Source: Escherichia phage Lw1. From it: a stretch of 64,000 bases of DNA. The DNA lies in sequence record KC801932, one strand, 5' to 3'. The notes under the pieces were generated by a model that saw only the letters and a program-made list of their open reading frames with translations, did not search any database and was not told the origin of the DNA. Every line of letters starts with the position of its first letter. Within the stretch, counting starts at the first letter, position 1. Below, in pieces: positions 55,471 to 61,787 of the stretch. The position numbers and the translations under genes are program-made.

Positions 55471-55953
55471 ATGCTGACGAAACGAATTACCAAAAAAGAT
55501 TACCCAACAATCAAGCAAGCTCTCTTTGACAAACAAGGGGGCTGCTGTGCTCTCTGTAAACGTCCTCTTGAGGGTGATATAGAGAAACATCACCTTGACC
55601 ATGACCATGCTTTAGACGGCGAAAACGCCGGACGTGTGCGCGGGCTTCTGTGTAACCTATGCAACGGTACAGAAGGTATTGTAAAGCACAAATTCAATCG
55701 ATCCGGTCTGGTTTCCCGTGATGTTTATTACATCGCCTGGTTAGAGAATCTGCTTGCATATCTCAAGCAAGACTATTCCGAAAACCGTATTCATGACAAA
55801 TTCATACCAGATAAGGTAAAATGGTTTTCAAGACTTACCAAACCTGATATGATTGCCGAAATGGTTTCTATGGGCTTCGAGTACGCCGACAAAGACGAAC
55901 GCAAAGCCTTAACCGCAAAATATAGAAAGCAATTAATGAAGGCAACCAAATGA
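55471..55953 (+). CDS. 49: recombination endonuclease VII (gp49)
   Basis: CCALCKR...HLDHDH..G..AG.VRGLLCNLCN..EG..KHKFNRSGL...Y..WLENLL.YLK.DY pattern as T4 endo VII; start set to ATG 55471. Confidence 0.9.
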   Translation: MLTKRITKKDYPTIKQALFDKQGGCCALCKRPLEGDIEKHHLDHDHALDGENAGRVRGLLCNLCNGTEGIVKHKFNRSGLVSRDVYYIAWLENLLAYLKQDYSENRIHDKFIPDKVKWFSRLTKPDMIAEMVSMGFEYADKDERKALTAKYRKQLMKATK

Positions 55954-58079
55954 AAGTAGAAAAGCGCGACAATACAATTGTCGATTTCGACAAAGAAAAA
56001 ATCCGTAATGCAGTGTATAAAGCTGGAGGAACATCAGACGATGCTGATGCGGCTGTAGAATCTGCTATCGGTTCGTATCACCTGGATGGTAAACCAAACA
56101 CAATTGCACGTATTCAAAGTGCTGTTGAAGAATCCTTGATGAAAACGAACCCAGCGGTCGCCCGTTCATACATTGAGTATCGCCACGATCGCGACATTGC
56201 CCGTGAACAGAAAAGCAAGCTGTTCTCTGATATCTCCGGCATGGTGAACCTGTCCAACAAAGAGATCACCAACGAGAACGCGAACAAAGATGCAAGGGTA
56301 TTCCCGACACAGCGCGATTTGCTGGCGGGTATCGTAGCGAAGCATTTCGCCCGTAATCATATCCTCCCGAAACATATCGTAGAAGCGCATGATTCCGGTG
56401 ACATCCACTATCACGATCTGGACTATAGCCCGTTCACCCCTTACACTAACTGCTGTCTGGTTGACCTGAAAGGTATGCTGGAGAACGGTTTTAAAATGGG
56501 TAACGCGGACATTGAACCGCCTAAATCGATCGGTGTTGCTACCGCTCTCATGGCGCAGATCACCGCACAGATTGCCTCTCACCAGTACGGCGGGACAACC
56601 TTTGCGAACGTGGATAAAGTGCTGGCTCCATACGTCGAAATGACATTCTTCAAACATCTGCACGATGCTGAACATTACGGTATCGAACACTATAATGATT
56701 ATGTGTATGCGATTGAAAAGACTGAAAAAGATGTGTATGATGCGTTCCAGTCCTATGAGTATGAAGTAAACACCCTACATACTGCCAACGGACAAACCCC
56801 GTTTGTTACCATCACTTTCGGTACTGGTACGAGCGATTATGAACGCATGATCCAGAAAGCGATCCTGAAAAACCGTATTCGCGGCCTTGGTAAAGAGGGT
56901 ATTACTCCGGTATTCCCGAAACTGGTTATGTTCATGGAAAAAGGAATTAACCTTGATCCAGAGGATCAAAACTATGACATCAAACAACTTGCCCTGGAAT
57001 GTGCTTCGAAACGCATGTACCCAGATATCATTAGCGCATCTAATAACCGCCGTATCACTGGTTCTAGCGTTCCTGTATCTCCTATGGGTTGTCGCAGTTT
57101 CCTTAGCGTGTGGCATGATGATAACGGTAATGAAATTCTGGATGGACGTAATAACCTTGGTGTGGTGACAATCAACCTCCCGCGCATTGCGATCGAAGCT
57201 GAAGCACAGGAAGATGAAGACGCACACGACGCATTCTGGCGCATCCTTGATGAACGTCTGGATCTGTGCTTTGAAGCCCTGATGACTCGTATCGAAAGCC
57301 TACGCGGTGTTAAAGCCAGTGTTGCGCCGATCCTGTACACAGAAGGTGCTTTTGGTGTCCGACTGAAACCGGATGATGAAATTCTGGAACTGTTCAAAAA
57401 TGGGCGTAGCTCTATCAGCCTTGGTTATATCGGACTACATGAAACACTGTTGATGTTCGGATCTGGACAACACCCATTCGATCGGGTTGGCTCCCAGAAT
57501 TTCGGTAAACATGTTCTGGAACACCTGAAAAACAAAACCGAACGTTGGAAAGCCCAAACAGGCTTTGGATTCAGCCTGTATTCAACCCCTGCTGAATCTC
57601 TCTGTCACCGTTTCTGCAAACTTGATTATCAGAAGTTCGGAAGCATCAAAGGGATCACTGATAAGGGTTGGTATACAAACAGTTTCCATCTTGACGTTGA
57701 CCGCAAGGTAACACCGTTCGAGAAAATCGACTATGAAGCCGATTATCATTACATTGCGACTGCTGGACATATCAGCTATGTAGAATTTCCTGATATGAAA
57801 AACAACCTGGAAGCACTTGAAAAAGTCTGGGATTACGCGATGGAAAAACTGGACTACTTCGGAACTAACCTTCCGGTCGATAAGTGCTTTGTATGTGGCT
57901 CTGATGACGAGTTCACGCCTACAGAAGACGGTTTCCACTGTAAGCACTGCGGTAATCACGATCCGGCTAAAATGAGCGTCACGCGCCGTACATGCGGTTA
58001 TTTGGGTGCTCCTGCTGTTCGTGGATTCAACGAAGGTAAGAACAAAGAAATGATGCACCGAACTAAGCATCAAAATTAA
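55950..58079 (+). CDS. nrdD: anaerobic ribonucleoside-triphosphate reductase NrdD (no intron evident)
   Basis: 709 aa; C-terminal CxxC...CxxC zinc site and glycyl-radical-type C-terminus (RTCGYLG). Confidence 0.95.
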   Translation: MKVEKRDNTIVDFDKEKIRNAVYKAGGTSDDADAAVESAIGSYHLDGKPNTIARIQSAVEESLMKTNPAVARSYIEYRHDRDIAREQKSKLFSDISGMVNLSNKEITNENANKDARVFPTQRDLLAGIVAKHFARNHILPKHIVEAHDSGDIHYHDLDYSPFTPYTNCCLVDLKGMLENGFKMGNADIEPPKSIGVATALMAQITAQIASHQYGGTTFANVDKVLAPYVEMTFFKHLHDAEHYGIEHYNDYVYAIEKTEKDVYDAFQSYEYEVNTLHTANGQTPFVTITFGTGTSDYERMIQKAILKNRIRGLGKEGITPVFPKLVMFMEKGINLDPEDQNYDIKQLALECASKRMYPDIISASNNRRITGSSVPVSPMGCRSFLSVWHDDNGNEILDGRNNLGVVTINLPRIAIEAEAQEDEDAHDAFWRILDERLDLCFEALMTRIESLRGVKASVAPILYTEGAFGVRLKPDDEILELFKNGRSSISLGYIGLHETLLMFGSGQHPFDRVGSQNFGKHVLEHLKNKTERWKAQTGFGFSLYSTPAESLCHRFCKLDYQKFGSIKGITDKGWYTNSFHLDVDRKVTPFEKIDYEADYHYIATAGHISYVEFPDMKNNLEALEKVWDYAMEKLDYFGTNLPVDKCFVCGSDDEFTPTEDGFHCKHCGNHDPAKMSVTRRTCGYLGAPAVRGFNEGKNKEMMHRTKHQN

Positions 58080-58085
58080 TCAAAA

Positions 58086-58115
58086 AGCCCCTTGCGAAAG
58101 TGAGGGGCTTTTGTT
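58086..58115 (+). terminator. rho-independent terminator after nrdD
   Basis: gcccct...aggggc hairpin + ttttgtt. Confidence 0.7.
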
Positions 58116-58150
58116 ATATTGCACATACCTAAACTATGAGGTATTGAAAA

Positions 58151-58633: not shown

Positions 58634-59133
58634 TGTTCGAGAAAATCCTTGATACTCTGTTTCCCTCCCGTGTACGCGCACGGGTAGAGCGAGAAAACCG
58701 ACTCGAAGAAATCCGTTTTAACAAGTTCCTTGAGGACAAGAAGAAGCGCGAAGACGAGAAACACCCAAACGCGGTAATGGCTGAGGGTGTATCGAAATGT
58801 TCTGTCGGGCGGTTCTGGGTTGAAAAGGATTATCTTGATCTGATAGGTGCAATTGCACCTGGTGTTACGCTGGAGGACTTATCCCGTGCAACAGGACGTT
58901 CGTATACAGGATGTATAAATCGTCTCCGTATGTTGTCTATAGTGGTGCGTGGTGCGCATTTTGGCTATCGTGACGTTATCCTTCCGGTGATCCCAGTAAG
59001 CAGATTAAAAATTCACCTTGCAAACGGAAAAAGAATTGACTTAACCGAAGAACTATGTAGAATAGGCTATATCAGAGAGGGGAAATTCGTGAAAGCCCCT
59101 GAATGGTTCATCAAACAATTTGAAATCAAATAA
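58630..59133 (+). CDS. hypothetical protein (167 aa)
   Basis: ORF track, ATGA coupling. Confidence 0.5.
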   Translation: MMFEKILDTLFPSRVRARVERENRLEEIRFNKFLEDKKKREDEKHPNAVMAEGVSKCSVGRFWVEKDYLDLIGAIAPGVTLEDLSRATGRSYTGCINRLRMLSIVVRGAHFGYRDVILPVIPVSRLKIHLANGKRIDLTEELCRIGYIREGKFVKAPEWFIKQFEIK

Positions 59134-59142
59134 GGTAATATT

Positions 59143-59739
59143 ATGTTTAAGAAACTGATGTCTTTCATTAACAATAAAGCAGAAACCGCCATCGAAAAGA
59201 ACACTTCCCCAGAAGACGCATGGCGTAGTGCTGGACGTATTCTGATCAAAGAGATCGACCGTCTGCGACATACTCGCATTACCGCTGCACACGAAATCAA
59301 GAAGCTGGAGAAGAAGGTCGCGGAACATAAAGCGCACCATGAGAACAAAGAAGCAGAAATCAAAAAACTGCTGGCGGCTAATCAGGAAGTTTCGAACAGC
59401 CATTACATCCTGGCGCTGCAACATCGCAATATCTGGCAAGGGTTGCAGGACAAGATTGAAGATCTTCGCAGCATGAATGTTCAGATCGACCTTTCGGTTG
59501 TCGAACTGGATAAGAAAATGGCTGAGGTTAAAATCAACCTTGACATTATCGAACTGAACAAAGAAACCGAAAACATGGGCCTGACAATACCGGAAGATGT
59601 GATCGCCAGCGTGGGACATACCACTGTGAACGTCGATACAATCGTAACGAAAATTGATGTGTTGCTGGGTGGCAAGAACGCCGCTTCCGTAACCTCTGCC
59701 GATGTCAGCGCGTATATCGATGCCCTAAAAGCAAACTAA
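59143..59739 (+). CDS. PspA/IM30-like coiled-coil protein
   Basis: N-terminal amphipathic helix (MFKKLMSFINNKAETAIEKNTSPED) and long heptad-rich coiled-coil like PspA family. Confidence 0.5.
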   Translation: MFKKLMSFINNKAETAIEKNTSPEDAWRSAGRILIKEIDRLRHTRITAAHEIKKLEKKVAEHKAHHENKEAEIKKLLAANQEVSNSHYILALQHRNIWQGLQDKIEDLRSMNVQIDLSVVELDKKMAEVKINLDIIELNKETENMGLTIPEDVIASVGHTTVNVDTIVTKIDVLLGGKNAASVTSADVSAYIDALKAN

Positions 59740-59744
59740 GAGGA

Positions 59745-59766
59745 AGGGGCGAAAGCCCCTTTTTTC
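59745..59766 (+). terminator. rho-independent terminator
   Basis: aggggc gaaa gcccct + tttttt. Confidence 0.75.
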
Positions 59767-61000: not shown

Positions 61001-61237
61001 ATGAAAATCAAAAATACTGCTACTGAAAATCTTTGCAACGAAATCGCGGTGACTTACTGGAAAGAAGGTCACGCAAAAGCAATGAAGGATTTTCAACACT
61101 GGAAAGAAGGTCACGCAAAAGCAATGAAGGATTTTCAACCGTGGTGTGATACCCAGAAGTTAGCCAAATGGGAATACATCGTAATCGTGGAACGGATCAA
61201 AGAACTGATCCTTGAGAAGAAAGGCACTATAAAATGA
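61001..61237 (+). CDS. hypothetical protein (78 aa) containing in-frame 14-aa duplication
   Basis: ORF track; WKEGHAKAMKDFQ repeated. Confidence 0.45.
   Translation: MKIKNTATENLCNEIAVTYWKEGHAKAMKDFQHWKEGHAKAMKDFQPWCDTQKLAKWEYIVIVERIKELILEKKGTIK
61057..61140 (+). repeat. perfect-to-near-perfect tandem duplication, 2 x 42 bp
   Basis: ctggaaagaaggtcacgcaaaagcaatgaaggattttcaac repeated head-to-tail, one mismatch at unit end. Confidence 0.9.
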
Positions 61238-61295: not shown

Positions 61296-61787
61296 ATGAA
61301 CTTTGACCGCATCTACAACATGGATGTGGTCAACGGTAAAGGAATCCGTGTAGTGTTGTTTGTCACTGGCTGCAATCATAAATGCGAAGGTTGCTACAAC
61401 AAATCAACATGGAATCCCCGCAACGGTACACCATACACCGAAGAGACTGAAAACGAGTTGATTAAACTCCTTTCAAATCCTTATGTGGACGGATTGACGC
61501 TTACAGGTGGCGATCCGTTTTACCGCACCAATCATCCAACACTGTTAAACCTGCTCCAGCGCGTTCGTGCTGAGTTGCCGGATAAGAACGTATGGGTTTG
61601 GACAGGCTACACACTGGACGCCTTACAAAGCGATACAGAACGTTCTAAGCTACTTCCGTTTATTGATGTTCTTATCGACGGGAAGTATGAAAAAGATTTG
61701 CCGACTAAGAAACCGTTTCGCGGTTCTGATAATCAGCGATTGATTGAGTTTCAGAAAGATTCAATAGAAATTAAAAATATCGCTTGA
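61296..61787 (+). CDS. nrdG: anaerobic ribonucleotide reductase activating protein NrdG (radical SAM)
   Basis: CNHKCEGC cluster (CxxxCxxC), GGDPF motif. Confidence 0.9.
   Translation: MNFDRIYNMDVVNGKGIRVVLFVTGCNHKCEGCYNKSTWNPRNGTPYTEETENELIKLLSNPYVDGLTLTGGDPFYRTNHPTLLNLLQRVRAELPDKNVWVWTGYTLDALQSDTERSKLLPFIDVLIDGKYEKDLPTKKPFRGSDNQRLIEFQKDSIEIKNIA

Follow-up and report, generated by a model that had tools for sequence, protein, structure and literature searches.

Escherichia phage Lw1 carries an orthologue of T4 e.6, probably a distant and shortened relative of PspA/IM30

The window analysed here, a stretch of 64,000 nucleotides of Escherichia phage Lw1 (sequence record KC801932), comes from a T4-type phage whose closest relatives are the Citrobacter phages Xman, Miller and CfP1, with ~90% nucleotide identity across 92-93% of the last 24 kb of the window; RB43 (Pseudotevenvirus) is a further relative. 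Between nrdD and nrdG, which are annotated likewise in related phages, the six-frame ORF list holds an ATG-started frame of 198 aa that fills 59143..59739 of the plus strand end to end, exactly where a sequence-only reading had placed a gene in the nrd region (Table 1). This gene, called the e.6-type gene below, comes third in a run of three ORFs on one strand, which together are bracketed by two terminators. The one that closes the unit is a G+C-rich hairpin with a GAAA tetraloop and a T run after it, and the terminator scan counted 7 terminators in the region against 2.9 +/- 1.6 expected. Judging from the sequence, the promoter and terminator signals at 58083..58120 probably open the unit of which the e.6-type gene is the final member, and the two upstream ORFs are probably co-transcribed with it. 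A further promoter match, at 59036-59063, may be a dedicated early promoter of the e.6-type gene, which would fit the early class to which T4 e.6 RNA is assigned. The two upstream ORFs correspond to PHROGs 8646 and 10107, both annotated as of unknown function; they have no Pfam match and are not PspB-, PspC- or PspF-like. All the neighbours fall into PHROGs of unknown function and match nothing in Pfam, and no genes for PspF- or PspBC-like partners were found near the e.6-type gene. Neither a second e.6-type copy nor a canonical PspA was found elsewhere in the 64-kb window.

Table 1. Coordinates of the genes, candidate signals and protein segments discussed in the text (positions are those of the 64,000-nucleotide window).
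Feature	Position	Strand	Remarks
nrdD	55950..58079		Upstream flank; glycyl-radical motif RRTCGYLG in the translation
Terminator after nrdD	58083-58112	+	Overlaps the promoter at 58092-58120
Sigma-70-like promoter, TTGCGA-17-TATATT with TG	58092-58120	+	Candidate from consensus scan only
ORF, 160 aa	58151-58633	+	ORF list
ORF, 167 aa	58630-59133	+	ORF list
Sigma-70-like promoter match, TTGACT-16-TAGAAT, 10/12	59036-59063	+	Inside the upstream ORF, ~80 nt before the ATG; candidate from consensus scan only
Shine-Dalgarno-like AAGG	59132-59135	+	Probable ribosome-binding site 7 nt 5' of the ATG, overlapping the upstream ORF's stop; read from the sequence
CDS, 198 aa	59143..59739, stop included	+	T4 e.6 / PHROG 1203 orthologue, remote PspA/IM30-like
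N-terminal amphipathic helix	59143..59202 (codons 1-20)	+	Counterpart of PspA alpha0; putative membrane-binding element
Linker IEKNTSPED	59191..59217 (codons 17-25)	+	Aligned to PspA/Vipp1 LEKAEDPQK (hhalign)
Antiparallel helical hairpin (predicted)	59209..59574 (codons 23-144)	+	Corresponds to PspA alpha1 and alpha2/3
Conserved C-terminal region	59575..59736 (codons 145-198)	+	GL..PEDV, VDVDT, TSADV..YI..LK; alignments A1, A2
Intrinsic terminator, GGGGC-GAAA-GCCCC then TTTTTT	59740-59765	+	Directly 3' of the e.6-type stop; closes the three-gene unit
nrdG	61296..61787		Downstream flank; CxxxCxxC

The encoded protein matches the profile of phrog_1203 ('unknown function') over almost its whole length (E 2e-71; residues 1-196 against profile positions 3-199 of 200), and tblastn recovered full-length homologues from 1160 of 50,697 phage records. 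The homologue from RB43 is 84% identical to the window protein, and the T4-type e.6 genes are ~30% identical with 98-99% coverage (E 1e-11 to 1e-17). T4 e.6 itself (NP_049742, T4p129) has 197 aa, aligns with the window protein end to end and is assigned to the same PHROG in a published supplement (PMC11879866). The 36-sequence family alignment (A2) contains no large gaps, and the blocks that T4 e.6 and the window protein have in common comprise the K-rich amphipathic helix at the N-terminus, E24, A30-A31, L90...R95, VVEL, G146 and the C-terminal TSADV..Y..LK. By profile match and by full-length alignment alike, the window protein belongs to the T4 e.6 / PHROG 1203 family, and its gene is almost certainly an orthologue of T4 e.6, of the RB43 type. 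The strength of the PHROG 1203 match, the number of phage records that share the gene and the detection of both RNA and protein from the T4 orthologue establish it as a real, conserved gene beyond a chance ORF. When 1.84 billion cluster representatives were searched exhaustively with a HMMER profile of the family, only 44 clusters came back, all of the e.6 family, in which the full-length sequences are ~200 aa and the others are shorter, partial sequences; on these searches the family is compact and phage-restricted. It spans T4-like (Straboviridae) and some Ackermannviridae phages, and the phages that carry it infect a variety of hosts, among them Aeromonas, Acinetobacter-like hosts and those of Ackermannviridae.

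The gene lies between nrdD and nrdG in RB43 as it does in the Lw1 window, whereas T4 e.6 sits between e.5 and e.7, beside the tRNA cluster. Because the position differs between T4 and the RB43-type phages, the nrd context says nothing about function, and we rejected a functional tie to the nrd genes on the same ground. The names given to homologues vary: JGI calls a member of one family cluster 'phage shock protein A', and others are labelled 'host specificity protein' or 'tail completion protein'. We rejected the latter two labels since they are automated, the 'host specificity' label deriving from an ACLAME class, and since RNA of the T4 orthologue is classed as early. In published supplements T4 e.6 is placed in the early RNA / middle protein class, with RNA and protein both detected (PMC9697503). 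Its knock-down was scored 'Not Fit', with no fitness effect, in a CRISPRi-ART screen (PMC11879866, supplements), and a transposon study found insertions at 43 of 43 sites and lists the gene as non-essential (bioRxiv 10.1101/2025.11.20.689424, supplements). By these two genome-wide screens, T4 can do without e.6 in the laboratory.

The sequence-only reading had described an N-terminal amphipathic segment followed by an extended heptad-rich coiled coil, and both descriptions held up. Residues 1-18 are predicted to form an amphipathic helix: their hydrophobic moment is 0.46, close to that of residues 3-20 of E. coli PspA (0.49) and below that of Vipp1 (0.61), and only 2.4% of shuffled sequences reached 0.46. 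Across the family, hydrophobic residues are conserved at positions 2, 5, 8, 9, 13, 16 and 17, in an i/i+3/i+4 pattern, together with Lys at 3, 4, 12 and 19. In the AlphaFold monomer this N-terminal segment is unstructured (pLDDT ~36). With alignment A2 as input, AlphaFold2 (mean pLDDT 70.9) predicted two antiparallel helices, 23-78 and 85-144, joined by a turn at 79-84, with pLDDT of ~80-94. The predicted hairpin spans ~120 residues and its arm lengths match those of PspA. Short helices are predicted at 151-158, 165-174 and 185-197 in the C-terminal region, where pLDDT falls below 50 at 158-183; the predicted protein is all-helical. The local hhalign comparison of residues 140-198 with PspA was not significant, and it took an hhalign run forced to be global to pair ...YIDALKAN with ...LAQLKAK of PspA; the C-terminal helices may possibly be counterparts of PspA alpha4/alpha5.

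When the model was compared with the PDB by Foldseek, ranks 1-9 were all Vipp1 (E 1e-3 to 4e-2, prob 0.99-1.00). Rank 10 was an unrelated chain from an HDAC complex; after it came one more Vipp1 chain, then, at ranks 12-13, PspA (7abk, 4whe), and next the archaeal ESCRT-III protein CdvB2. Against the BFVD viral models, the first match outside the e.6 family was a giant-virus Snf7 protein. The predicted fold is compatible with PspA, but a hairpin fold alone is not diagnostic.

The sequence-only reading had assigned the protein to the PspA/IM30 family and had named a search of the Pfam PspA_IM30 model as its check, with a generic coiled coil lacking any PspA-family score as the outcome that would count against it. 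The search returned PspA_IM30 (PF04012) as the top Pfam match (E 3e-4), with residues 2-146 aligned in register to model positions 3-148, and the score was 20.9 bits, which lies below the gathering threshold of 33.9 bits. PspA_IM30 is also the Pfam family matched by most of the 36 e.6 members; 8 of the 36 match it at E <= 1, the best at E 7e-5, and T4 e.6 itself has no Pfam PspA match. BLASTP against E. coli PspA gave no match. Searches of PDB sequences with phmmer and hmmsearch found Vipp1 in register but weakly (E ~0.4-1.3), and this was the best PspA-family match of the e.6 sequence profile (3-145 vs 3-147, E ~0.4). The top PDB sequence match was LptE (E 0.006 over 39 residues), which we dismissed as a chance match to a short local helix. 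None of the 44 clusters from the HMMER search is a canonical PspA or forms a bridge to one. Given the sub-threshold Pfam score, the weak E-values against the PDB and the null result from BLASTP, profile-sequence methods fail to establish PspA membership, and the protein should not be filed under PF04012, the curated threshold of which was tested and lies above its score.

An argument for a relationship comes from profile-profile comparison, in which hhalign was run omitting the secondary-structure term. The choice of template proved to matter. A scan of genome contigs, a tblastn search of plasmids and a word-indexed search yielded almost only Enterobacterales PspA with 78-100% identity. Against a shallow enterobacterial template the comparison collapsed to a 36-column N-terminal match with a Prob of 1.3%, which shows that a diverse template is needed. 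This diversity was supplied by a Vipp1 sequence and by PspA genes from IMG/VR, of which eight were gathered; the final template comprised 17 PspA/Vipp1 sequences (Neff 3.5), namely E. coli PspA, nine Enterobacterales sequences, Synechocystis Vipp1 taken from a PDB alignment and six canonical IMG/VR PspA genes. Against it, an alignment of 66 e.6-family members gave a Prob of 90.9%, E 1.1e-6 and a score of 47.2 over 131 columns, with e.6 positions 1-137 in register with PspA 3-133. Controls which preserve composition and, largely, the heptad pattern were far lower: Prob 0.6% and score 16.9 for the reversed template, 1.6% and 20.0 for the reversed query, and at most 1.4% and 19.6 among 25 shuffles of seven-column blocks. 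The true score is ~27 units above every control.

Both halves of the family recover this alignment separately. The T4-type clade alone gave a Prob of 93.6% (E 2.2e-7) in register, and the RB43-type clade alone gave 49% with a score of 34.1, again in register (1-145 vs 3-148). Dissecting the protein, residues 1-30 alone matched PspA 3-31 with a Prob of 81% (E 1.2e-5, score 28.0), while the hairpin alone (31-146) kept the same register with a Prob of 7% and a score of 22.6, barely above the controls. The bulk of the profile-profile signal is the N-terminal amphipathic helix and the linker, where F2 of the e.6-type protein pairs with F4 of PspA and P23 with P25, and the EK pairs of the two proteins coincide. 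Pro23, the residue paired with PspA Pro25, is invariant in the RB43-type clade and is found in 18 of 66 family members, most T4-type members having V, A or I at this position. In the linker itself (EKNTSPED vs EKAEDPQK) K and P coincide, with the caveat that P is not kept across the family. The two clades differ: the RB43 type combines P23 with a Pfam PspA_IM30 match, and T4 e.6 has V at this position and lacks the match.

These results bear on whether the resemblance could be convergent, with the e.6-type protein being a generic coiled coil that has an unrelated job, as a scaffold or adaptor in nucleotide or DNA metabolism, or as a virion or host-range factor. Convergence of this kind appears improbable, given that the hhalign match is in register, is anchored at the N-terminus, stands well clear of its controls and is reproduced by each clade as well as by HHpred runs in print. 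In a 2021 genome announcement, the T4 e.6 homologue of phage Metamorpho (gp163) was reported to match E. coli PspA (4WHE_A) in HHpred at 99.9% (PMC7862958), and a 2022 paper described phrog_1203 as homologous to PspA from a comparison with pdb70 (PMC9409062). As for the particular jobs, the early expression of T4 e.6 argues against a structural role in the virion, the neighbourhood is not conserved and the nrd context is uninformative, and the automated origin of the 'host specificity' label weakens the case for a host-range factor. It is likely that the e.6 family is homologous to the PspA/IM30/Vipp1 branch of the ESCRT-III superfamily, and the window protein is probably, on sequence grounds, a remote and shortened PspA/IM30 homologue that falls outside PF04012 by the Pfam criterion. 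Remote homology to the family proposed by the sequence-only reading is thus supported by the in-register top Pfam match, hhalign, Foldseek and the published HHpred results, and the outcome that this reading had named against itself did not arise; formal Pfam membership is not supported.

Homology at this distance leaves considerable differences from the known proteins. E. coli PspA (4WHE) and cyanobacterial PspA (7ABK) resemble the e.6-type protein in the moment of the N-terminal helix, in the aligned EK...P of the linker and in two antiparallel helices of ~55-60 residues that are in register with its own. Identity is, however, only 15-18%, the e.6-type protein is ~25 residues shorter, its C-terminal third has no significant alpha4/alpha5 match, and it lacks pspF/pspBC neighbours. 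Vipp1/IM30 (7O3W, 6ZVR, 9EOM) gave the best Foldseek matches (TM ~0.5 over ~197 columns), albeit at weak E-values, but the e.6-type protein has no C-terminal extension alpha6 and belongs to a phage rather than a thylakoid context. The C-terminal part of PspA and Vipp1 serves inter-subunit contacts, according to structural work. A protein whose predicted hairpin equals that of PspA in size and whose C-terminal part is truncated and divergent could, in principle, act as a poison subunit, co-assembling with host PspA so as to cap or disrupt its polymers and weaken repair, for example to tune the timing of lysis. We regard this as highly improbable: co-polymerisation is doubtful at ~15-18% identity to host PspA, T4 e.6 is expressed early, long before lysis, and its knock-down has no phenotype.

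Canonical phage PspA/IM30 proteins (for example from Acinetobacter phage vB_AbaM_ME3 and from IMG/VR contigs L085-L092) are likewise virus-borne and stand-alone, but they are 220-245 aa long, have an exact KAEDP and are 23-33% identical to E. coli PspA, which makes them clear members of the family. The e.6 family is a separate and far more divergent lineage, which HMMER does not link to canonical phage PspA. With ESCRT-III proper (Snf7, CdvB2) there is no sequence-level signal, and these proteins lack a PspA-type N-terminal alpha0 in the form seen in e.6 and PspA, such that the likeness is at the superfamily level only.

If the relationship is accepted, then the function of PspA offers a mechanism for the e.6-type protein. 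It is established that PspA attaches to membranes by its N-terminal helix and holds down proton leakage, and PspA and Vipp1 polymerise by hairpin packing. T4-type phages shut off host transcription. After infection, the phage would make its own PspA-like effector, which would dock on the stressed inner membrane through its amphipathic helix and, by hairpin packing, may self-assemble into a coat that reduces the leak of protons. Such a coat could keep the proton-motive force up through the damage of DNA injection, the accumulation of holin and lysis inhibition, and likewise through superinfection or the action of pore-forming effectors of abortive infection. Timing would fit a substitution, in which the phage protein stands in for a sigma-54-dependent host psp operon that is weakly induced in T4-infected cells. 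As there are no PspB/C/F-like partners nearby, the effector would act alone; taken together with the dispensability of T4 e.6 in rich laboratory conditions, this fits a conditional, accessory role rather than an essential one. By analogy with PspA, we put forward this membrane-maintenance mechanism tentatively, at somewhat less than even likelihood. The account as a whole, from e.6 orthologue through PspA homologue to membrane maintenance, we judge to be about evenly balanced.

The same region that carries the resemblance could also serve a different purpose. In E. coli PspA, the alpha0, linker and start of alpha1 reportedly govern a switch between binding PspF and binding the membrane, and it is this part of PspA to which the e.6-type protein is most alike. 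It might then be a regulatory mimic, which binds host PspF (or PspB/C) via alpha0/alpha1 and keeps the Psp response off or misdirects it, with no part in membrane repair. That the host psp operon is weakly induced by T4 infection (PMC12795941) would agree with this. A dedicated psp repressor nevertheless seems redundant where host transcription is shut off anyway, and the hosts of e.6-family phages include some with a divergent or absent PspF, which leaves regulatory mimicry quite improbable to us.

Returning to membrane maintenance, the sequence-only reading had suggested that a phage copy may protect the inner membrane from leaky holins, superinfection or pores formed in abortive infection, a suggestion that is plausible but speculative. 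Neither the resemblance to PspA nor its possible use against abortive infection is new. Both are already in print as in-silico statements, and the window adds one orthologue and no new functional information. Our literature search on e.6 and phage PspA-like proteins found two in-silico remarks and, for e.6-family proteins, no published record of rings or rods, lipid binding or suppressed proton leak; the experimental information on T4 e.6 comes from omics and screens. The 2022 remark casts phage-encoded PspA in an anti-abortive-infection role, in which it would preserve the proton-motive force (PMC9409062). In a stronger form of the idea, the e.6 family would be a minimal, self-sufficient viral PspA that maintains the proton-motive force by polymerising on the inner membrane of the infected cell, broadly counters membrane-depolarising Rex-like systems and pore-forming effectors of the CBASS/gasdermin type and stabilises lysis inhibition; this would amount to a novel type of anti-defence or membrane-maintenance function, present in T4 and in >1,000 sequenced relatives. 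The idea of a minimal viral PspA with an anti-defence role is likewise a proposal only in that paper, and in this full form we consider it rather doubtful.

For the annotation of these genomes, 'PspA/IM30-like protein, T4 e.6 family' would be a better description than 'hypothetical', 'host specificity' or 'tail completion protein'. Since the gene is present in T4 itself, with its genetics, knock-down libraries and transposon mutants already in existence, the function is directly testable. If the proposed function is true, then T4-like phages carry their own membrane-repair protein of the ESCRT-III superfamily, which would explain the membrane potential of infected cells after the shutoff of host gene expression. 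Phages would then also be known to have a counter-defence that works at the membrane.

The three-gene cassette that lies between nrdD and nrdG and ends with the T4 e.6 orthologue is flanked on each side by a strong hairpin terminator, the two sharing a common GAAA tetraloop. A promoter-like site overlaps the upstream hairpin. The downstream one scores on both strands and, judged from its sequence, may therefore terminate transcription in both directions. Closer to nrdG, a perfect tandem duplication doubles a 14-residue segment (WKEGHAKAMKDFQ...) in a 78-residue product assigned to PHROG 5072 (unknown function), and the PHROG 5072 profile matches two separate stretches of this small protein.

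Features around the cassette and near nrdG in Escherichia phage Lw1 (KC801932)
Feature	Coordinates	Strand	Details
Terminator	58083-58112		upstream of cassette
Promoter-like site	58092-58120		
Terminator	59740-59765		downstream of cassette
ORF, PHROG 5072	61001..61237	+	78 aa
Tandem duplication	61056-61139		within the PHROG 5072 ORF; 42 bp, 2.0 copies, 100% match

Product names given to e.6-family homologues in public records are inconsistent. The labels include 'hypothetical protein', 'host specificity protein', 'Phage host specificity protein (ACLAME 1259)' and, for the copy in Klebsiella phage UPM 2146, 'Tail completion protein', while a JGI record names one member 'phage shock protein A'. 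Certain copies lie on contigs of ~175 kb recorded as Brucella melitensis or Enterobacter cloacae complex, which are presumably phage contigs within bacterial assemblies.

When the family profile (A2, an alignment of 36 sequences including T4 e.6) was compared with PDB sequences, the top match was to LptE (4n4r_B), pairing profile positions 20-58 with residues 139-177 (E 0.006). The match spans 39 residues of the C-terminal part of LptE, with a shared pattern of VxxxYxxAAxQLI, and was judged to be a chance local similarity between helices.

PspA itself is also found on plasmids. More than 440 enterobacterial plasmids in a plasmid collection carry pspA, encoding a protein with 92.8% identity to PspA of E. 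coli K-12; their hosts are Klebsiella, Enterobacter, Salmonella and Citrobacter, the majority are predicted to be conjugative, and the plasmid psp locus is widely disseminated.

Eight canonical PspA/IM30 genes (L085-L092) likewise occur on IMG/VR contigs assigned as viral, some of these contigs being jumbo-sized (306-360 kb for L089-L091; 262 kb for L088). Their products, of 220-245 aa, retain the exact KAEDP motif and are 23-33% identical to E. coli PspA. A 'PspA/IM30 family protein' of Acinetobacter phage vB_AbaM_ME3 is also present among the viral structure models of BFVD. Taken together, these data indicate that phages carry canonical PspA as well as the divergent e.6 lineage, the IMG/VR part of this conclusion resting on the viral assignment of the contigs at these loci.
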